From IMG/VR virus record IMGVR_UViG_3300025915_000004, positions 1 to 64,000 of that record: a stretch of 64,000 nucleotides of DNA. One strand, 5' to 3'. The translations under genes were made by a program, and so were the position numbers. The stretch's first letter is position 1. Every line of letters begins with the position of its first letter. This DNA is from a virus. Lineage: Duplodnaviria > Caudoviricetes. Under the pieces are notes generated by a model that was given only the letters and a program-made list of their open reading frames with translations, was not told the origin of the DNA and did not search any database. Of this stretch, positions 9,575 through 17,712 are shown piece after piece.

Positions 9575-9606
9575 GCGGGATTGCCGGGTGCGGCCGACAA
9601 TCCCGC
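9575..9606. terminator. Hairpin closing the korA-traB transcription unit
   Basis: GCGGGATTG ... CAATCCCGC just downstream of the 9623 stop. Confidence 0.55.
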
Positions 9607-9622
9607 CTAGTGTTACTTGGTA

Positions 9623-10081
9623 TCACTCTGTGTCGATCCTCGCACCCGTTTCGCGGGAAAGCAGGGCAACGCTCTCGGGGAAGCCGATCGATCCGCCGCC
9701 CGTGTCGACACCGGTCACGGTGATCGTGAACAGCTTCCCGACCAGCAGCTTGTCGACGTCGCTCGGGCCTGAGTTGCGCGCGACGCCGACCGCGAAAGCC
9801 TGTTCGTCCGCATAGGTGTAGACGGCCACCTGTTCGCCGTCGGCGAACTGCCCTACTGCGTACCGGTCGCCGTAGATGTCGACGTTTCCGTCAACCACAC
9901 CCGAGGGGATGGGGACGTGCATCCGCTGCAAGATCGGAACGGGGTTCGCGGCGTTCGCGGCCGTAGGCGCGGTCGCGGCGACGCTGCCGACCGAGCCTTC
10001 GACCCAGAACACGACGGATCCGGCCAGGGCCGCCGTCCCGACTGTGACCGCGATCACAGCTGTGCGTGTATCTATCCGCAC
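9623..10081 (-). CDS. Membrane-anchored or secreted hypothetical protein
   Basis: N-terminal hydrophobic stretch AVIAVTVGTAALAGSVVFWV. Confidence 0.6.
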   Translation of the reverse strand: MRIDTRTAVIAVTVGTAALAGSVVFWVEGSVGSVAATAPTAANAANPVPILQRMHVPIPSGVVDGNVDIYGDRYAVGQFADGEQVAVYTYADEQAFAVGVARNSGPSDVDKLLVGKLFTITVTGVDTGGGSIGFPESVALLSRETGARIDTE

Positions 10082-10093
10082 GGTTGCCGCCTC

Positions 10094-10357
10094 TTAGTTG
10101 GTGATGCCGCGATGCCACTGCGGCATCGGGACCTGCGTGCCCGGCTCGGCGGTTCCCGCGTCGGTGAAGTCGCTCTCGTTGGCGTCGCGCAGCTCGACGC
10201 GCGATGCCTGCGGCGCTCCTGCGGACACATCTCGGCTCACCGCGCTGTAGACGCTCGCGACGATGCCGGGGTGGATGCGGATGCGCAGAGTCACGTCCGG
10301 CCGCGGCGCGCGCACCGCGGCGCGCGGCGACGGAGGGCGGCGCGGGGTGAGCGCCAT
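10094..10357 (-). CDS. Hypothetical protein
   Basis: Coupled to the upstream gene (1-bp overlap). Confidence 0.5.
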   Translation of the reverse strand: MALTPRRPPSPRAAVRAPRPDVTLRIRIHPGIVASVYSAVSRDVSAGAPQASRVELRDANESDFTDAGTAEPGTQVPMPQWHRGITN

Positions 10358-10812
10358 CAGCTGTTCACCGCACCGGTGAAGGCGGTCCGCCGGTCCAAGT
10401 CCGTACCGATCTCGCGCACCATATAAGGGTCATTACCCGGTCCGTGGCTGGGCGCATAAGGACGCTCGCCGGCCACGACGAAATCCTCCATGCGCTCATG
10501 CGTGTCGACGTCGCCGAGCCGGTCGAACAGCCAGCGCTGCCAGCTGCGCCGGTCGTACGTTGCGGCCGGGACCGGGAAGTAGTGCGTGACGCGCATCATC
10601 CGGTCGTGGTGGTACGTGTCGCGGCCGTTCCGGGTGACGATGAGCGTCAGCCCTCCGGCCGCAGCAGTGTGCACGCCGTCGTGGTCGCGCTCGACGTCGT
10701 CCAGCCGCACGTCCCAGCCCAGGTCCTCGCGGTACTCCAGGTGTGCGACCAGGTAGTCGAGCTCGTCCGGGTACGGAGCGTACTGGCGCATGGTGCCCAT
10801 CACGGCCTCCAT
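10357..10812 (-). CDS. Hypothetical protein
   Basis: 151-aa ORF with typical high-GC coding pattern. Confidence 0.65.
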   Translation of the reverse strand: MEAVMGTMRQYAPYPDELDYLVAHLEYREDLGWDVRLDDVERDHDGVHTAAAGGLTLIVTRNGRDTYHHDRMMRVTHYFPVPAATYDRRSWQRWLFDRLGDVDTHERMEDFVVAGERPYAPSHGPGNDPYMVREIGTDLDRRTAFTGAVNS

Positions 10813-10961
10813 ATCCTCATCAGCCAGAAGAACGCGCGCACCACGCGACCGCGCGCTCCGTCGGCCGCTCCGATGTTCTCGTAGCGCAGCAGATCAGGGC
10901 ACAGGTGCTCTGGAGTGAGCAGCGTGCCGAAGGTCGCGGGTGACGTGGTTATCTGCTGCAT
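10800..10961 (-). CDS. Small hypothetical protein (MQQITTSP...)
   Basis: ATG at 10961 overlaps the upstream stop; fills the operon gap. Confidence 0.4.
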   Translation of the reverse strand: MQQITTSPATFGTLLTPEHLCPDLLRYENIGAADGARGRVVRAFFWLMRIWRP

Positions 10962-11212
10962 CAGTTGCTCACCGCCTTGTGCAGTCCGGGAATGCCGTCG
11001 AGCAGAAGAAGATCGTGGTGTGGATACGTGATCGGAGCTCCGGGGGCGGCGACGGCCGATCCGTTGCTGATCAGCCTGGCCGCGTTGACGTCGTCGGTGT
11101 CGTCCCATACGTCGCCGGGCACGATGTCCGGCCAGCGGGCCCGTTCGGTGCCGGCCCGGATCGTGGTCAGTGCCTGCAAACGGGTGGTCATGCCCCTCAA
11201 TGTAACGCTCAT
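10961..11212 (-). CDS. Small hypothetical protein
   Basis: ATG at 11212 overlaps the stop of 11209..12378 (ATGA). Confidence 0.55.
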   Translation of the reverse strand: MSVTLRGMTTRLQALTTIRAGTERARWPDIVPGDVWDDTDDVNAARLISNGSAVAAPGAPITYPHHDLLLLDGIPGLHKAVSN

Positions 11213-12378
11213 GTGCGCTGCCCTGGAGTCCTTCGGCCGGTCGCCAGCTCCCGCGCGGTGGGCCGGTGTGCCGCGCGCAGCTGCGTGCGCCCGAACCATG
11301 CTCCGGCGTGTTCGTCCGGCACGACGCCGAGCCCTCTGCACGCGCGGCAGCGGTCGTACGGGTAGGCGCGGGACGCGGCGGCGCGTAGCTTGCGGGCCGC
11401 CGGGACGCGGTTCTCGCTCGCCTCGGCCTGGCGGACCAGATCGGCGATGTACCGCTCGCGCAGCTGGTCGGTGAACGCCCGGTTGACGATGCCTTCGTCG
11501 CAGCTCCCGCATGCGACCGTCGGACCGGCGTAGCGGGCACGGCCGGACTGGCGCACGGCGCGTTCCTGCTTGCGGTCGAGGTTTCCGCGCGGACGGCGGT
11601 ACTTCGCGTCCAGCCAGCCGGCGATGCCGGGCAGTCCTGCATCGGTCATCGCCCGGCGGCTGAGTACCTTGCGCCCGCCGCGGGCGTTACGGCCGTGCAC
11701 AGGGCAGGAGACGGACCCGGCGACCAGCGTGACGCCATCGCGCTGCTCCACGGTGGCGATGCGTCCGGTGCCCTGGCACTTGCAGGTGGCGGCCAGGTAG
11801 ATGCCGCGCAGGCTCTTGCCGGGCTCAGGCGGCGGCGGAGGCGGCGGGGGAGCATTCTTCGCTGGAGCCTTCTTGCGCGGCGCGGTTTTCTTCGCTGGTG
11901 CAGGCGCCTTGGCCGATCGCTTGCGCGGTGCCCGCGCAGGTGCATCGGCCGGCTTCCCTGCGGCGATCCGGTCGGCGCGGGCATTCGCCTCTCGGTACGC
12001 CTTCATCGCCTGCGCCAGGGTGATCGGCTCGCCGGTGCGGGGGTTGGTCGCGATCACCGGACTCGGCGCGCGCTTGCGCGGCGGACGGGGTGCGGCCTTT
12101 TTCGCTGCGGCGGCCTTTTTGCGCGCCGCGGCGGCTTCGCGCTGTTCCCTGCGCCGGGCAGCCTGCTTCTCCCGTTGTTCGCGCCGCTTGCTCGCCTGGT
12201 ACTGCTTGCGCCGATTGCCCTTGTTTGTGATCGTTTTCGTGCGCAGCGGCGAGCGCGCGATGTCCGTAAACGTCTGGTGCTTGCCGCCGCTGATGAACCT
12301 GGCTGCGACCCGGTTCGGTTTCATCGCCCGTGCGGCCTGGCGCCACGGACTGCGTCGGCGCCTACGTCGGGCCATCAT
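11209..12378 (-). CDS. Very basic protein with histone-H1-like region and DnaJ-like Zn-finger motifs, coupled to traB
   Basis: Lys/Arg/Ala/Pro-rich N-half (PAKKTAPRKKAPAK); CKCQGTG, CPVH, CGSC, CRACRGLG; ATGA overlap with traB. Confidence 0.7.
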   Translation of the reverse strand: MMARRRRRRSPWRQAARAMKPNRVAARFISGGKHQTFTDIARSPLRTKTITNKGNRRKQYQASKRREQREKQAARRREQREAAAARKKAAAAKKAAPRPPRKRAPSPVIATNPRTGEPITLAQAMKAYREANARADRIAAGKPADAPARAPRKRSAKAPAPAKKTAPRKKAPAKNAPPPPPPPPEPGKSLRGIYLAATCKCQGTGRIATVEQRDGVTLVAGSVSCPVHGRNARGGRKVLSRRAMTDAGLPGIAGWLDAKYRRPRGNLDRKQERAVRQSGRARYAGPTVACGSCDEGIVNRAFTDQLRERYIADLVRQAEASENRVPAARKLRAAASRAYPYDRCRACRGLGVVPDEHAGAWFGRTQLRAAHRPTARELATGRRTPGQRT

Positions 12379-14696
12379 GCGTCCTTGCGCGCCAGTGCGC
12401 TCAGCCGGCGGCGCGCGGTCTCATCGTCGCGCCAATACCGGAAGTCGCGCCCTTCCCGCTCGCTGGTGACGTACTCTGCGGTGCGCCACTCGGCGCACAG
12501 CGTGCGCACCCACGACAGGGATCGGTCGTGGCCGGCGCGCTTGCCCGTGACACACAGCTCGGACACGGTCGCGCCGCGGTCGCCGAAGGTGGCCAGCAAC
12601 TCCCAGTACGCCAGGTGCTTGGCCTCGATCTCGGTCTCGTCCGGGTACCGGGGCACGACCCGCGGGATCCATCCGCCAGTGCCGCCGCGGGCCGGGGTGT
12701 CGTTGACGGCGGCGTCCTGCACGCCGTCTCCGTCTCCGTCCGGGTCGTCGAACGGCGGGGGCGTGGTGACGTCCGGCTCGACGCCGTTCATGATCGCCTG
12801 GAACGCGGCGTCCGACTCCTCGTCCAGTTCCGGCCGGCTGTTCTTGTACTCCTCGACCAGCTGCGCGATCCGCTCGTCGCCGAGCCAGAACCCCTTGCGC
12901 TCGACGGGGACGCGCTCGTCCAGAGTGACCATGTAGAACTTCCCCTTGGTATCCAGTTCGTTCGCCCTGAAGTTGTCGCCGTGCGCACCGTCGTACAGCA
13001 CGATGTTGGTCAGCCGCGGTCCGACGGTCGCCACGCAGATCCGGTTCTGCGCCTGGTCGGTGCCCGACTTGATACCACCGGTCGCCAGGGCGTCGGGCTT
13101 CTGCGTGGCCACCACGATCGTCACGTCGTAGGCTCGGCCGACCTGCATGATCCGCACGTAGTTGGTGGACATGCACGCGACCGCGCGCCGCAGCACCGGG
13201 TTCTTGTACTTTTTCAGGTCCGTCTGCCCCTGCTTGCGGAACAGCTCGGCGATCTCGTCGATGATCCCGACCAGCGCCGGGCCGTCCGCGGTGTCCCAGC
13301 CGCGCTCGGACTGGCCGGACTCCTGCCGCTTGCGCTTGAGGATCGCGCCGCGCGTGTTGATCACCGCGACCATGGCTTCGAGCAGCAGCGCGGCCTTCTC
13401 GAACGAGTCGGCCGAGGCGTAGGCGGCTTCCTCGTAGATCCCCAGCTCCAGCGAGCCGGGCTTGTTGTCGAGCAGGACCAGCAGCGCGTCGTCCATCGCC
13501 ATCACCTGAGTGGCGATCACGTTCACGACACCGCTTTTGCCGTTGTTCGTCGTGCCGCCGACCACCGTGTGATTGCGGTACAGCGGCAGGTACGTCATTT
13601 CTCCGGTGGCCGACGGGCCGAGCGGAATCGGGTTCTTGATCGAGCGGACCGTGATTCCCGGAAAAGGAATCTCCTCGGCCAGTTCGTCGATCTCCCCATA
13701 CCGCACGGTGAGGCGCACTTCGTTTCCGTTGCGGGTGCGCTGGGCGATGATCTGATTCGCGCCCAGAGCCGAACGCAATTCGTCGCGCCGCGCAATGATC
13801 GCGTCCGGGCCGACCCCCTTGGCCGGCGCCAGGCGCACGGTGATCCGGAACGAGGACTCGTTGATCCGCTCGAAGCCGTAGACGTCGGTGAGCTTGATCC
13901 CCAGGCCCTTGATCGCCGCGCCGTCGCCCTCGAACGCCTTCCAGACGACCGACTCCTCATGCGAAAGGATCTTGCCCGGCACGGCAGTTGCCGGGGCGGA
14001 AGTTCCGCCCGGCATTCCGAGGATTGCCGGGTTGGAGGCGGCAGTCTGGCCGACGATGAAGCCGCGCTGATCCTGAAGTCGGGAGTGCCGGTTCTCGAAC
14101 CAGGCGTAGAAACTTCCGGCAGTCAGCGGCATCGAAGTTCCGGCACTAAGCCACGACCGGCCGGTGATGCAGGCGGCTCCAAATGCCACCCCCCAGGCTC
14201 CGGCGAGGCCGACCACGTGTGCGCCGCGGGAGATCACACCGTCGTCTCCGTTGATCGCGTGGATCACGTGCACCGCGCCGTACGCCAGCAGTCCGACGAT
14301 CCCGAAGCCGAGGAAGACTGCGCCGAACCACGGGTGGTTGGGCTCGGTGGCCGCCGCGCCCCAGCCGCAGACGTCGCCAGCCAACACGCCGAGCGCGGGC
14401 ACCAGGTGGCGGTCCTGCATCCACTGGAACAGGGACCAGCCGGTGCGATCTGCCAAGCCGGGGGTCAGCTGATCCGCCACGTAGTCGGGGATGCCGGCCT
14501 GCTGGCCCCAAGGCTGCGTGGCGGATGGCTGAGACACAGTCGGGCGCTGGACCTGCGCGTTCGACATTGTTGCGAGTTGTTGCGCCACGCCACGCAGCAC
14601 AACTTCGCCGTCGCGGCGATCCGAAATCTCGATCGCGTCGATGATTTCGTCGAGTTCTTCTTCCTTGGCGTGGCGGATGGCGTGGCGTCGCATCAT
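12375..14696 (-). CDS. traB: TraB-type FtsK/SpoIIIE DNA translocase (actinomycete conjugal transfer protein)
   Basis: N-terminal TM segments, Walker A GGTTNNGKS, Walker B IIDE, VATQKP and QAQNRIC motifs, C-terminal winged helix; sits in a korA/spdA-like operon. Confidence 0.85.
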   Translation of the reverse strand: MMRRHAIRHAKEEELDEIIDAIEISDRRDGEVVLRGVAQQLATMSNAQVQRPTVSQPSATQPWGQQAGIPDYVADQLTPGLADRTGWSLFQWMQDRHLVPALGVLAGDVCGWGAAATEPNHPWFGAVFLGFGIVGLLAYGAVHVIHAINGDDGVISRGAHVVGLAGAWGVAFGAACITGRSWLSAGTSMPLTAGSFYAWFENRHSRLQDQRGFIVGQTAASNPAILGMPGGTSAPATAVPGKILSHEESVVWKAFEGDGAAIKGLGIKLTDVYGFERINESSFRITVRLAPAKGVGPDAIIARRDELRSALGANQIIAQRTRNGNEVRLTVRYGEIDELAEEIPFPGITVRSIKNPIPLGPSATGEMTYLPLYRNHTVVGGTTNNGKSGVVNVIATQVMAMDDALLVLLDNKPGSLELGIYEEAAYASADSFEKAALLLEAMVAVINTRGAILKRKRQESGQSERGWDTADGPALVGIIDEIAELFRKQGQTDLKKYKNPVLRRAVACMSTNYVRIMQVGRAYDVTIVVATQKPDALATGGIKSGTDQAQNRICVATVGPRLTNIVLYDGAHGDNFRANELDTKGKFYMVTLDERVPVERKGFWLGDERIAQLVEEYKNSRPELDEESDAAFQAIMNGVEPDVTTPPPFDDPDGDGDGVQDAAVNDTPARGGTGGWIPRVVPRYPDETEIEAKHLAYWELLATFGDRGATVSELCVTGKRAGHDRSLSWVRTLCAEWRTAEYVTSEREGRDFRYWRDDETARRRLSALARKDA
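13994..14010. repeat. Palindrome GGGCGGAA-G-TTCCGCCC inside traB
   Basis: Perfect 8-bp arms; nearly the same element recurs at 15099-15115. Confidence 0.75.
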
Positions 14697-15532
14697 CCCG
14701 CCTCCCAGCTGTCCGAAGCTGTCCGAAGCTGTCCGAGGCTGTTCGAGAGGCGTTCGACGTCGGCGCGCAGGTTGCGCTCCCAGCGATCCGAGGTGGGGAT
14801 CTTGAGCGTGGGGTGTGCGTGGCGCAACGCATCGGCCAGCTGCGTGGCGTTGGGTGCGCTACCCGTCTTCAGGACGTGGCGGGTCCACAGCGGTTCGGCG
14901 AGTTCGGCCCATACGGCGGCGGATTTGCGACCAGCCGAGCCAATGTCGACGACGTTGCCGGAATTACGGGTGGCAGCGGGGGGCGGAACGAGTGCGGCGC
15001 TGCCGCCCCCCGCTGCCGGGTCCGCTTCCGCCCGGCTGCCGGGTGCGGCCGGCGTCTTCAGGGCGGAAACGGACGTCTTGTGCCGGGCGGAAACTGCCGG
15101 GCGGAAGTTCCGCCTCGCCGCAGTCAGCTGCCGCCACAGCCAGGGGGCCAGAGAGCCCCAGCCGAGCAGGAGTACCGGGCCGACGCAGTCGACCGCCACC
15201 AGGCGCCAGTGGCTGTCGTGCAGCGCGACCGCGGTGTTGAGCCACACCATGATCAGGCCGCAGGCGAGTGCCGCCAGGTGCAGCGGCCAGTCGGCGCCCT
15301 CGTGCTCGTGCGTGGAGAGGTAGGACGCCGCGATCACCAGGACCATGACGGCCAGGTCGACGGCCGGGCCGGTCAGATATGCGATGCGGTGCTCGACGCC
15401 GAGGCTTTCCAGGAATGAGCCGACGTTCCCGAAGGAGAAGAAGAACACCAGCAGCGGAATCAGGGACAGGCCGATACCGACGATCCAGAACGTGATCGTC
15501 TCCACCGCGTCCGCAGACTTCCGGCCCGGCAT
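14693..15532 (-). CDS. SpdA-like (DUF2637-like) membrane protein of actinomycete mobile elements
   Basis: Four TM segments with the AVDLAVMV motif, low-complexity linker, helical C-terminal domain; lies between the GntR gene and traB. Confidence 0.65.
   Translation of the reverse strand: MPGRKSADAVETITFWIVGIGLSLIPLLVFFFSFGNVGSFLESLGVEHRIAYLTGPAVDLAVMVLVIAASYLSTHEHEGADWPLHLAALACGLIMVWLNTAVALHDSHWRLVAVDCVGPVLLLGWGSLAPWLWRQLTAARRNFRPAVSARHKTSVSALKTPAAPGSRAEADPAAGGGSAALVPPPAATRNSGNVVDIGSAGRKSAAVWAELAEPLWTRHVLKTGSAPNATQLADALRHAHPTLKIPTSDRWERNLRADVERLSNSLGQLRTASDSWEAG
14708..14747 (+). repeat. Four tandem 10-bp repeats, GCTGT(C/T)CGA(A/G)
   Basis: GCTGTCCGAA x2, GCTGTCCGAG, GCTGTTCGAG. Confidence 0.85.
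14981..15115. repeat. Cluster of GGGCGGAA 8-mers, candidate clt
   Basis: Direct copies at 14981, 15061, 15085, 15099; inverted at 15026; one-mismatch inverted at 15108. Confidence 0.7.
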
Positions 15533-16275
15533 TATTCCGCCTCCCCGATACGCAGGTCGTATTCCATGTCGAAGATTTCAGCGGACAGGATGATGACCAA
15601 TGCGTCGACAGGCCTGTCGTTGTCCGAGCGCGTGAGTCGCAGCACTCGCATCACCGGGATCCCCGCTGCGGCGATGCGCAGAATCCGCGCCTCTTCCGAG
15701 GTGGGCATGCGCGCCGAGACCCACTCGCGCGCCTTGCGCGGCGGGTAGCCGGCGCGTACCAGGGCTGCGGGCATGGCTCCGCGCAGACGCGCGGGACGCT
15801 CCAGCTCGGTGCCGCGGGCGATCGGGACCGGGATGTAGTCGATCGCGATCTGTGTCGGGGTGCCGTCTTCGTCGAACATGACGCGGCGCCGGCAGATCAC
15901 CGGCTCGCCGGGCTCGACCTCCAGCTTCTCGGCCACGTCGTCCGGCGGGACGATGCCGCCGACCTCCGGTTTGCTGGACCGGCCGTGGTTGATGGGCGCT
16001 CCGTCGGGGACCGGTGTCACGAAGTCGGCGGAGCGGCTGGAGCGGCGGCGCACTTCGCGCACATACACCCCTTTGCCGGAGACGGCCTGCACCAGTCCGG
16101 CCGCCTTCAGGGCGCGCACCGCCTTCTGCACGGTGTTGGACGACACGCCGTACTGCGCCACCAGCTCGGTGACCGAGGGGATCGCGCGGCCGGGCGGTAT
16201 CGTGCCTGATTCGATCTTTCCGCGCAGATCGTGCAGGACCCGCTGATACGCGGGAACGGTCCACTCGTCCGCCAT
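15532..16275 (-). CDS. GntR-family regulator with UTRA domain (KorA/TraR-like)
   Basis: GntR HTH (PSVTELVAQYGVSSNTVQKAVRAL...GKGVYV) plus UTRA-type C-terminus; first gene of the transfer operon. Confidence 0.9.
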   Translation of the reverse strand: MADEWTVPAYQRVLHDLRGKIESGTIPPGRAIPSVTELVAQYGVSSNTVQKAVRALKAAGLVQAVSGKGVYVREVRRRSSRSADFVTPVPDGAPINHGRSSKPEVGGIVPPDDVAEKLEVEPGEPVICRRRVMFDEDGTPTQIAIDYIPVPIARGTELERPARLRGAMPAALVRAGYPPRKAREWVSARMPTSEEARILRIAAAGIPVMRVLRLTRSDNDRPVDALVIILSAEIFDMEYDLRIGEAE

Positions 16276-16301
16276 CGGACGGCCTCCCTTCGGTGACTAT
16301 G

Positions 16302-16313
16302 GCGCTATAGCGC
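16302..16313. promoter_or_regulatory. Candidate GntR operator palindrome GCGCTATAGCGC
   Basis: Perfect 12-bp palindrome 27 bp upstream of the GntR start. Confidence 0.45.
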
Positions 16314-16400
16314 TTGACTTTCACAGTACACCGAAGGTGACGCATCGTGACAGGGGATCGGATGGCAAACTTGACTGAGTCCAGTTACGGCACACGACAG

Positions 16401-16436
16401 CGAAGGCGCCCGCGACCGTGTCGCAGAGCGCCTTCG
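16401..16436. terminator. Hairpin terminator after the secreted beta-helix gene
   Basis: CGAAGGCGC..GCGAC-CGT-GTCGC..GCGCCTTCG. Confidence 0.7.
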
Positions 16437-16452: not shown

Positions 16453-17712
16453 TCAGGGCTTGTTGATCGCGTGTCCGCTGCTGTCGACGTTGCCCGCCCA
16501 GGTGCCGTACGTGCCGGGGTAGCCGGACAGGTCGCCCACGTACCCCCACACGCCGGCGCCGAAGGTGTTGCCCTCGACGTCCACGCTGATCCCGGTCTGG
16601 TTGCGCAGCACGTACGCGCCGCCGCTCAGGTAGTTGCCCTTGACCGTGATACCGGTGTCGGTCGAGCCGCGGTCTTGGATGAACACCGCGGCCGTGGTGT
16701 CCGACCGGACCGGCGCGTCCACGTAATTGCCCTGGATCAGGATGTTGCCACCACCCTGGCTGAAGATGCCGTCCAGGTGCGTGGGGGTGCTGGAGGTGCC
16801 GTTCTGGAACAGGTTGTGTATCCAGTTGTTCAGCACCACCGAGTCCGCGCCGGGGTCCAGACCCTGCGGCATGCCGGAGATGTCGCTGCGCTCGACGTCG
16901 ATCCGGCCGCCGTACAGGCTCCAGACCGGACCCGCGTCCACCCCGGAGGGCATGCTCTTGCCGGGCAGCCAGCCGACGGTGGAGTCCTTGACCACCATCC
17001 CGGCGTTCGCCGAGTGCCCGAGCAGCGCGTACCACGCGCTTCCGGTGCCCCCCTGCACGATCGAGTCGGTGACCGTCATCGTGCCGGTGCCGGTCCAGTA
17101 GACCGAGCCCTTGATCCAGTCATGGTCGAAGACGAGGTTGGTGCTGTCGCAGCGCAGGCCGTAGGCCTGCCACGAGGAACAGCCAGCGGGCACCGCTCCA
17201 CCCGGCTGATACACGGTCAGGGCCGAGGTCGCGCCGAGGTAGCCGACCGTGCCGGGCTGCACGTAGGAGGTTCCGGTCGACGGCGACGCAGAGGGTGAGA
17301 CGCTCGCCGACGCGCTCGGGCTGGGCGATGTACTCGGCGACGGCGACGCGCTCGGACTCGGACTCGCCTCGGGCAGCACGGTGAGCGCGCCGTACCAGGT
17401 GCAGGTCGAGTAGACCGTGTAGGGCCCGGACATCCCGGTCAGGGACACCTGCGGCGGGGTCGCGCTGTACGCGTCGGTCTGCGACGTGGATGAGTTGCCG
17501 TCGTCCGAGACCGCAGACACGGCGGAGAGGTAGTAGCCGGTCGTACACGGATCCGTGTAGGTGTGTGACGGATCGGTGACGTGCTGGCTGTAGACGGTGG
17601 TGGGATTGGACGCGTCCGCGTTCGACGGCGCCGCCAGGAGGAAGGTCGCCAGCATGCCGGTCACCGCTACTGCGGCTGCGGATGCGCTGGTGATCAGTGT
17701 CTTTGCTCGCAT
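16453..17712 (-). CDS. Secreted protein with Ser/Pro linker and right-handed beta-helix (pectate-lyase-like) domain
   Basis: Signal peptide MRAKTLI...APSNADA, SPSPSASPSP linker, beta-helix repeats (NNWIHN, THLDGIFSQGGGNILIQGNY, ITVKGNY, VEGNTF). Confidence 0.7.
   Translation of the reverse strand: MRAKTLITSASAAAVAVTGMLATFLLAAPSNADASNPTTVYSQHVTDPSHTYTDPCTTGYYLSAVSAVSDDGNSSTSQTDAYSATPPQVSLTGMSGPYTVYSTCTWYGALTVLPEASPSPSASPSPSTSPSPSASASVSPSASPSTGTSYVQPGTVGYLGATSALTVYQPGGAVPAGCSSWQAYGLRCDSTNLVFDHDWIKGSVYWTGTGTMTVTDSIVQGGTGSAWYALLGHSANAGMVVKDSTVGWLPGKSMPSGVDAGPVWSLYGGRIDVERSDISGMPQGLDPGADSVVLNNWIHNLFQNGTSSTPTHLDGIFSQGGGNILIQGNYVDAPVRSDTTAAVFIQDRGSTDTGITVKGNYLSGGAYVLRNQTGISVDVEGNTFGAGVWGYVGDLSGYPGTYGTWAGNVDSSGHAINKP

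Follow-up and report, generated by a model that had tools for sequence, protein, structure and literature searches.

Transfer of double-stranded DNA (dsDNA) by the TraB/Tra/TraA-clt systems of Streptomyces plasmids such as pSVH1, pIJ101, pJV1 and pWTY27 relies on a single membrane-anchored FtsK-like ATPase of ~690-770 aa, which combines membrane helices (two in TraA of pWTY27, at 68-124; PMC3583192) with a winged helix-turn-helix (wHTH) domain and goes together with 8-bp clt repeats (PMC4447253, PMC3583192). Published clt sites consist of 7-9-bp direct and inverted repeats that adjoin or overlap tra (PMC3583192), and the plasmids also carry a GntR-type regulator, TraR, and a coupled spd operon (PMC4447253, PMC3583192). 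SpdA is a DNA-binding stability protein and SpdB2 is the four-helix Spd protein; SpdB2 of pSVH1 is an integral membrane protein that oligomerises, forms pores and binds both DNA and peptidoglycan (PMC4447253). Here we describe a block of nine genes at positions 9575-16436 of the window, by which we mean the 64,000 nucleotides analysed from the tailed-phage record IMGVR_UViG_3300025915_000004. We hold, with slightly more confidence than doubt, that this block is a phage-resident version of the actinomycete TraB-type dsDNA transfer system, a backbone module serving virion-free spread through mycelium. To judge from sequence, its identity as a TraB-type dsDNA translocation module is well supported, and virion-free spread of phage DNA would be its most likely role.

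The window is the first 64 kb of an IMG/VR record of 74,596 bp that has a 99-bp direct terminal repeat and is rated 100% complete. Among sequencing runs, two DNA runs with small shares (0.20 and 0.06) and no RNA run were listed for it, which says nothing about habitat or expression. The GC content of the genome is ~68%, and it encodes a Mu-type portal, a large terminase, a lysin with a peptidoglycan-binding domain, a MazG-type pyrophosphatase and a probable tape-measure protein of 1,166 aa, together with the replication and DNA genes of the phage (Prim-Pol, PolA, SNF2 helicase, PD-(D/E)XK nuclease). That the block sits inside a phage genome, as the original prediction had it, is therefore borne out by the portal, terminase and lysin genes and by the completeness of the virus record. 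Gene calls were based on lists of open reading frames and on a frame plot of third-position GC, and gave nine translationally coupled minus-strand genes (g1 to g9) running from 16275 to 9623, flanked by two strong hairpins. The features on which the comparison with plasmid transfer systems rests are as follows.

15532-16275, minus strand: g1, 247 aa, HutC-type GntR regulator (GntR 66.3 bits, UTRA 70.8 bits)
14693-15532, minus strand: g2, 279 aa, membrane protein with four hydrophobic segments in residues 9-129 (by hydropathy)
14981-15106, unstranded: array of GGGCGGAA/TTCCGCCC, five exact copies in the linker-coding part of g2
12375-14696, minus strand: g3, 773 aa, FtsK/SpoIIIE ATPase (PF01580 27.5 bits, cut-off 24)
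13994-14010, unstranded: dyad GGGCGGAAGTTCCGCCC, 17 bp, perfect, two inverted copies of the GGGCGGAA 8-mer, inside g3
11209-12378, minus strand: g4, 389 aa, very basic protein (24% Lys+Arg)

The g3 product, which we refer to as the pump, also matched phrog_1358 (79 bits, 2.9e-22) and, among PDB entries, FtsK and TcpA-type motors at ~1e-14. Its first ~120 residues are taken to be cytoplasmic; two membrane helices, seen in a hydropathy window only as hydrophobic segments at 122-148 and 159-179, and a linker then lead to a motor at ~340-625, an acidic linker and a C-terminal winged helix at ~690-770. The Walker A motif reads GTTNNGKS and the Walker B motif contains DE, both being intact throughout the pump clade. 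The last 112 residues were predicted to fold as three helices and a beta-hairpin (H-H-H-strand-strand) with a predicted local distance difference test score (pLDDT) of 82, and the best PDB matches of this model were the winged helices of ArsR/SmtB, Fur and MecI proteins (template modelling scores of 0.50-0.58, Foldseek E ~3e-3), so that a wHTH fold is the predicted assignment for the C-terminus. An FtsK ATPase with transmembrane and winged-helix domains had been foreseen for this gene, and the hydrophobic segments and structural model agree. The pump is in these respects like the Tra proteins of Streptomyces plasmids, being a single membrane-anchored ATPase in their size range whose N-terminal part has two membrane helices and whose C-terminus is predicted to be a winged helix.

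To place the pump among known translocases we compared it with TraB-like genes, both canonical and weaker ones, that came from 301 genomes of the class, with chromosomal FtsK and EccC-like genes from five genomes, with a TcpA-type gene of Clostridium perfringens and with deposited relatives. The only NCBIfam family matched by g3 was the TraB family NF041214 (plasmid_TraB equivalog), which it matched with 22 bits against a cut-off of 800, and for this reason g3 is not filed as a canonical TraB equivalog. Scored against a profile of the phage-clade motor, the comparison proteins ranked as follows.

Streptosporangiaceae metagenome-assembled genome (MAG) contig: 304 bits
Gilgamesh and a 130-kb Streptomyces plasmid: 210-230 bits
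TraB-like subgroup (cellular; loci L018, L019, L023, L024 and L025): 83-146 bits
chromosomal FtsK: 49-60 bits
EccC: 18-48 bits
canonical TraB: 15-36 bits

In the maximum-likelihood tree, the phage pumps formed a clade (Shimodaira-Hasegawa-like approximate likelihood ratio test support 98) that was sister, with support of 84, to the cellular TraB-like subgroup and that lay apart from chromosomal FtsK, EccC and TcpA; a forced clade with chromosomal FtsK was rejected (approximately unbiased test, p 0.0013). The original prediction had itself proposed a phylogeny against TraB, FtsK and TcpA and had named a grouping with chromosomal FtsK or ESX proteins as the outcome that would speak against it; that grouping was not obtained, since the sister group is TraB-like and the FtsK clade is rejected. 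Because canonical NF041214 TraB proteins form a separate long-branch clade, g3 can be tied to the TraB-like subgroup only, and of the earlier label 'TraB' the TraB-like grouping stands, whereas the assignment to canonical TraB does not. We class g3 by its sequence as TraB-like, not as TraB. The pump thus differs from those of Streptomyces plasmids in scoring far below the TraB model and in belonging to a phage-associated clade of its own.

One member of the cellular TraB-like subgroup is encoded in a chromosomal region where a g2 homologue (tblastn 3e-12), a Nudix gene and an IS110 transposase gene are also found, surroundings reminiscent of a mobile element. This bears on a reading in which pump and site serve vertical movement, the phage genome being moved through the septa formed at sporulation or division, as SpoIIIE or SffA would do, so as to maintain a carrier state in spores or daughter compartments. 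A membrane-anchored pump with a predicted winged helix and an array of 8-mers in cis (described below) would fit this equally well, and since profile scans found neither an integrase nor ParA/ParB, a persisting genome would need some other means of inheritance. We nevertheless regard vertical movement as unlikely: the nearest cellular relatives are TraB-like proteins in this mobile-element-like setting and not chromosomal septal translocases, the partner protein belongs with DUF2637, a family adjoining tra genes, and nothing indicates that the phage persists in cells.

The g2 protein has an N-terminal four-helix domain, a low-complexity linker and a small conserved C-terminal domain. On its own it gave no Pfam match to PF10935 (DUF2637, gathering cut-off 22.8 bits), even at E 10, and pairwise BLAST between g2 and the DUF2637 protein of the related locus L007 was not significant, so that the link required profiles. 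Aligned with hhalign, the profile of the g2 family matched that of DUF2637 (74.5%, E 2.7e-5) with invariant Ser, Asp and Asn in register; an exhaustive search with the g2 profile returned 791 relatives, with PF10935 matched by 24 of the 52 sampled; and in a language-model atlas DUF2637 accounted for 29 of the 30 clusters nearest to g2. The positional equivalents of g2 in L007, L081 and L082 scored 68.9, 26.5 and 17.2 bits against PF10935, respectively, and that of L081 also carries the g2 C-terminal domain (E 5e-5). Several indirect sources of evidence hence point to g2 as a divergent member of DUF2637. Its tblastn search against phage records returned no match, none of ten clusters of distant relatives that were looked up carries an informative name, and the literature on DUF2637 yielded incidental mentions only.

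Of 18 DUF2637 genes in five actinomycete genomes, 6 have a TraB/FtsK-like gene within 2 kb; one of the six adjoins a canonical TraB and one shows the upstream order of the window, and the DUF2637 proteins near TraB/FtsK-like genes share the layout of g2 (membrane domain, linker, small C-terminal domain). By inference, g2 would be a partner of the pump with an Spd-type role. With its four hydrophobic segments it may resemble SpdB2 in topology. Since SpdA is a DNA-binding stability protein and the four-helix topology is nearer to that of SpdB2, the label 'SpdA-like' that g2 had first been given is wrong, although the four membrane segments and the idea of a pump partner that came with it hold up. 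SpdB2 homologues were reported by Thoma et al. 2015 in the actinophages phiC31 and VWB, where, it was suggested, they might aid the spread of phage DNA (PMC4447253); the membrane protein was reported alone in those phages, whereas here it is accompanied by a pump, a regulator and a candidate cis site.

The candidate site is the array within g2. The 8-mer GGGCGGAA occurs eight times in the window, five copies falling within 126 bp (four in one orientation and one inverted) and two more at 13994-14010. All three codon phases (0, 1 and 2) are represented among the copies of the array, and the peptides they encode differ; on account of the phases, the differing peptides and the inverted copy, selection appears to act on the DNA. 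Clusters were defined as 8-mers with at least four copies in 200 bp that hold at least half of all their copies. None of 100 second-order Markov-simulated genomes contained such a cluster, and the same script, applied as a positive control, recovered 8-mer arrays at five loci with a canonical traB, in each case directly at the 3' end of that gene. In the relatives, the top-ranked 8-mer cluster of each locus lies in the same gene segment with differing motifs: CTGCCGCC in L005 and L008, CAGCCGAA in L007 and CCGTCACC in L006, all at the equivalent place, where L081 and L082 have weaker clusters. L080, whose recognition helix is identical to that of the window, has five copies of GGGCGGAA, so that pump clades differ in their motif, and an identical recognition helix goes with an identical motif. 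The array at 14981-15106 is probably a clt-like cis loading site for the pump. The plasmid systems likewise have 7-9-bp repeats clustered within or next to their tra region; the array differs from these in lying upstream of the pump, inside the membrane-protein gene, rather than at the 3' end of tra. The dyad inside g3, of which a near copy is found at 15099-15115, could be a second pump site or a site for the regulator.

Other repeats were seen around the same junction. A 10-nt unit, AGCTGTCCGA, is repeated four times in tandem at 14707-14746, in the last codons of g2 and just before the start codon of the pump, and three full copies stay in reading frame; it was considered as a cis/clt site and dropped, being absent from that place in five relatives, with the motif not clustered elsewhere. 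Seven of the 15 window copies of CGCCACGC fall, in both orientations, within 334 bp at the g2/g3 junction (14516-14849), where this motif is also clustered in L005, L007, L008, L080 and L082; some of its copies encode a conserved Arg-His-Ala, which may reflect coding conservation, a second cis element or both.

Upstream of g2, the g1 protein falls within the HutC subfamily, having a GntR winged-helix and a UTRA effector domain that both score over their cut-offs, as had been read from the sequence at the outset, and it also matched phrog_10724 (1e-46). It is placed as TraR, KorA and KorSA are in the plasmid systems, and GntR-like genes adjoin the cellular TraB loci L016 and L023 as well. A neighbouring GntR-family regulator and coupled accessory membrane and small proteins are thus further features in common with Streptomyces plasmids.

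Such regulator-pump pairs could also be put to another use. Unregulated traB is toxic, traB and traR are Kil-Kor pairs and SpdB2 forms pores (PMC4447253), which makes it conceivable that the module stems from a plasmid Kil-Kor system and serves host takeover or exclusion without moving phage DNA: the pump and membrane proteins, expressed under regulation, would arrest or permeabilise the host, as happens in pock formation and through SpdB2 pores, or would block incoming plasmids or phages. PHROGs classes phage FtsK-like proteins under host takeover and morons, and many cultured actinophages hold a lone FtsK-like gene without partners. A toxic or exclusion role, on the other hand, needs no conserved sequence-reading winged helix; it would leave unexplained why the phage itself encodes an 8-mer array that changes from one pump clade to the next, and the intact Walker motifs of the clade speak against it as well. 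On balance, takeover or exclusion seems to us an improbable function for the block.

The FtsK-like genes of cultured actinophages, such as gp10 of Gilgamesh and gp110 of LukeCage as an example from Karimacvirus, are like g3 in encoding FtsK-like translocases and differ in that they share only 28-34% identity with it and are adjoined by neither a GntR gene, a DUF2637 match nor g4. With a cellular TraB-like protein as query, 354 phage records were matched, of which 94 were Streptomyces phages. The nearest deposited relatives of the pump, which group with its clade, are those of Gilgamesh and of five Streptomyces 'plasmids' of ~130 kb. These five PLSDB entries (CP108533.1, NZ_CP122459.1, NZ_CP107821.1, the circular NZ_CP070374.1 and NZ_CP108441.1; 129.7-132.6 kb) carry the Gilgamesh pump type and may be extrachromosomal Gilgamesh-like phages, Gilgamesh being a 129-kb temperate Streptomyces phage of similar size.

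A virion genome with a plasmid-type tra gene has a precedent in pZL12/phiZL12, which PMC3583192 describes as a virion-making genome with a plasmid-type major tra gene and adjacent conjugal-transfer genes, and which PMC7157519 counts among extrachromosomally replicating temperate actinophages. The two genomes are compared here by what is stated of pZL12 in PMC3583192, PMC4487206 and PMC7157519. In those descriptions pZL12 has ParA and ParB (pZL12.17c and pZL12.16c), whereas profiles for ParA (PF13614), ParB (PF02195) and tyrosine (PF00589) and serine (PF00239) recombinases found no match in the 74.6-kb genome, for which maintenance systems other than ParA/ParB are possible. A tblastn search with the pump at 1e-5 in the phage and plasmid collections returned no pZL12-type record. 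To all appearances, the genome is one without recognisable lysogeny genes. It differs in its missing ParA/ParB partition genes from a pZL12-type phage-plasmid, and from an actinomycete integrative and conjugative element (AICE), which by definition (Ghinet et al. 2011, PMC3218068) combines Rep and Tra with an integrase, either PF00589 or a serine recombinase, in that Tra and Prim-Pol are present, an integrase is not found and a full virion is also encoded. The 74.6-kb tailed-phage replicon, and g4, which is found only in the phage clade, are further differences from the Streptomyces plasmid systems.

The pump has 26 full-length relatives at 38-80% identity, all metagenomic and many on contigs of 55-99 kb, and the clade was found almost exclusively on phage-like contigs. 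The core g2-g3-g4, usually with a GntR gene upstream, is present in L005, L006, L008, L080, L081 and L082; L004 keeps g3-g4, and in L007 the pump is preceded upstream by a DUF2637 gene, while g4 is matched over just a short stretch by a smaller gene. The order MazG, GntR, g2, pump, g4, g5, g8, g9, lysin is shared by the window, L008 and a separate Logan contig, and in independent assemblies from other samples the block holds the same position between a MazG-type gene and the lysis genes. No match to the block was returned by megablast against 50,697 phage records. On this comparative evidence the block is best described as a syntenic backbone module of a high-GC soil phage lineage and not as a plasmid operon dropped in; of the earlier proposal of an actinomycete conjugation operon in a phage, the TraB-type architecture is retained and the notion of a plasmid insertion is given up.

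The same evidence bears on the idea that the block is foreign to the virus and functionless for it, either because an AICE or plasmid fragment was recently inserted or because the assembly is chimeric. Its bounding hairpins and its AICE-like gene types (GntR and Tra, with Nudix in the relative L006) would suit such an origin. The composition, however, is even throughout 9575-16436, the same genes occupy the same place in the independent assemblies at 38-80% identity, the block has neither an integrase nor repeat boundaries of its own, and a scan of one genome per species, covering 185,579 species, found a single related locus. A foreign origin is in our estimation extremely improbable.

Some relatives deserve separate mention. 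The L008 pump is only 38% identical to that of the window, its g1, g2, g4, g5, g8 and g9 counterparts being 60-78% identical; this divergence beside similar neighbours, together with an 8-mer that differs by one base, suggests that the pump, perhaps with its site, has been swapped between lineages. Upstream of the pump module, positions 1-4000 of L006 (contig Ga0310811_10000322) hold two UTRA/GntR genes, an HTH_17 (Xis-like) gene and a NUDIX gene, kinds of gene that characterise AICEs, for instance pSAM2 (KorSA, Pif). The nearest pump relative (80% identity), on the P0002 contig (JGI 3300047160), lies ~2 kb from a gene with a weak Phage_integrase match, because of which part of the lineage may be temperate, unlike the genome of the window. 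The sole pump relative in the genome collection, L058 (Streptosporangiaceae MAG contig CAYPQM010000002.1, 95 kb), lies at a contig end and adjoins a TROVE/VWA (Ro-like) gene; this contig may be a binned phage or prophage.

Downstream of the pump, which it always follows in this clade, g4 encodes a protein with a conserved motif at its N-terminus, spacers rich in Lys, Ala and Pro, and a C-terminal domain that bears two clusters of zinc type, CxC...CPxH (C199, C201, C225, H228) and CxxC...CxxC (C290, C293, C344, C347), which are invariant. It has 11 homologues, all on contigs of the pump clade. No match to g4 was found in Pfam, PHROG or NCBIfam, in deposited phages by tblastn with its C-terminal half, or, in usable form, by a feature search of the language-model atlas; its AlphaFold model has a pLDDT of 63, and an exhaustive structural search gave no fold match, the best hits (Z 5.5) being helical hairpins only. 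We describe g4 as a clade-specific, apparently new conserved basic zinc-cluster protein, zinc-type by motif. The remaining features of the block are as follows.

16401-16436, minus strand: upstream hairpin, ~16-bp stem, -35.4 kcal/mol, z -3.19
16276-16400, minus strand: leader, fold of -45.3 kcal/mol, z -3.07
10961-11212, minus strand: g5, 83 aa, ATGA-coupled to g4, 78% identity to its L008 counterpart
10800-10964, minus strand: g6, ~54 aa, ATGA-coupled to g5, the weakest gene call
10357-10812, minus strand: g7, 151 aa, acidic, phrog_1540 (phage family, function unknown), 9.8e-16
10094-10357, minus strand: g8, 87 aa, 60% identity to its L008 counterpart
9623-10081, minus strand: g9, 152 aa, last gene of the block, 60% identity to its L008 counterpart
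9575-9606, minus strand: downstream hairpin, 16-bp stem, -27.8 kcal/mol, z -3.75, 17 nt past the g9 stop

The g9 protein has one N-terminal hydrophobic segment (membrane anchor or signal), and frame-plot support for g6 is confined to ~10780-10990. Adjacent genes overlap by 1-13 nt except at one junction with a 12-nt gap. The upstream hairpin sits 17 nt past the stop (16453) of the preceding 419-aa gene and is probably a terminator that insulates the block from upstream transcription, and the downstream hairpin is probably the terminator of the block itself. In a shuffle test, none of 200 shuffles was as stable as either hairpin; a consensus terminator scan omits both because they have no T tail. 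The close coupling of the genes, the hairpins beginning at 9575 and 16401, the basic zinc-finger protein and the five small genes had all been noticed in the original prediction and were recovered here, g4 with invariant Cys clusters and g5-g9 with support from the frame plot. The leader contains a perfect palindrome, GCGCTATAGCGC, at 16302-16313 and a flanking inverted repeat, CCTTCGGTG/CACCGAAGG; a ribosome-binding site, GGGAGG, precedes the ATG of g1 (16275), and a consensus scan of the block for sigma-70-like promoters found none. The leader is probably a promoter region with a presumed operator. The 419-aa gene upstream of the block (16453-17712) has an unusual codon-position GC of 0.56/0.58/0.91 and no Pfam, PHROG or NCBIfam match; in L080 the same place is taken by a 435-aa gene.

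A number of points weigh against our interpretation of the block as a phage-resident transfer module. At the level of the pump, g3 fails the curated TraB equivalog model by a wide margin (22 versus 800 bits), canonical TraB forms a clade of its own on a long branch, the support of 84 for the sister relationship to TraB-like proteins is moderate, and stand-alone FtsK-like genes are common in cultured actinophages, where they have no known transfer role. As for the partner, two scans gave no Pfam DUF2637 match for g2 itself, and it is tied only indirectly to the Spd proteins that have been studied by experiment. The array falls within a linker-coding stretch of low complexity; in L006 and L008 most copies occupy a single codon phase, so that peptide repeats could account for part of the pattern, no clear array is seen in L004, and the array could be a site for the GntR regulator instead. 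Finally, the phage is known from metagenomes only, and a mycelial host is an assumption.

If the block is a transfer module of the TraB type, it might work in the following way. The regulator would repress the pump until a signal is received, as in plasmid Kil-Kor pairs, and the pump, once made, would form a hexameric membrane pore at septal cross-walls or hyphal contacts. On the phage genome, the 8-mer array would be recognised by the winged helix of the pump in the way that clt is by TraB, and ATP hydrolysis would move the replicating phage dsDNA into the adjacent compartment or cell, with Spd-like help from g2 (the DUF2637 protein), from g4 as a basic DNA-binding protein and from the small proteins, so that infection would spread through the mycelium without virions. 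A more far-reaching version, which we offer tentatively and think less likely than the general proposal, is that a lineage without recognisable lysogeny genes pumps its replicating genome into neighbouring compartments or cells by means of TraB, DUF2637 and clt counterparts together with g4, and thereby possesses a second route of infection that is independent of virions and receptors.

Parts of this picture were already known, namely lone FtsK-like genes in hundreds of phages, to which no role is assigned, the idea of phage spread (PMC4447253) and the presence of tra on the plasmid-phage pZL12 (PMC3583192). What is new here is a full set of regulator, partner, pump and candidate site, an array that lies inside the partner gene, a conserved basic protein of zinc type and a genome without recognisable lysogeny genes. 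The conserved pump and its 8-mer array constitute a testable protein-DNA pair, the clade-specific arrays providing a natural specificity series, and Gilgamesh, which is cultured on Streptomyces lividans and carries the nearest deposited pump, offers a laboratory entry point.

Were the proposal true, the line between phages and conjugative elements would be blurred beyond the case of pZL12, because this genome shows no recognisable plasmid-maintenance or integration genes. Infection of a mycelium would not be restricted to the adsorption of particles, since a single entry could cross a colony and possibly reach neighbours that lack the receptor, and our view of plaque formation, of phage resistance and of gene flow among soil actinomycetes would change.

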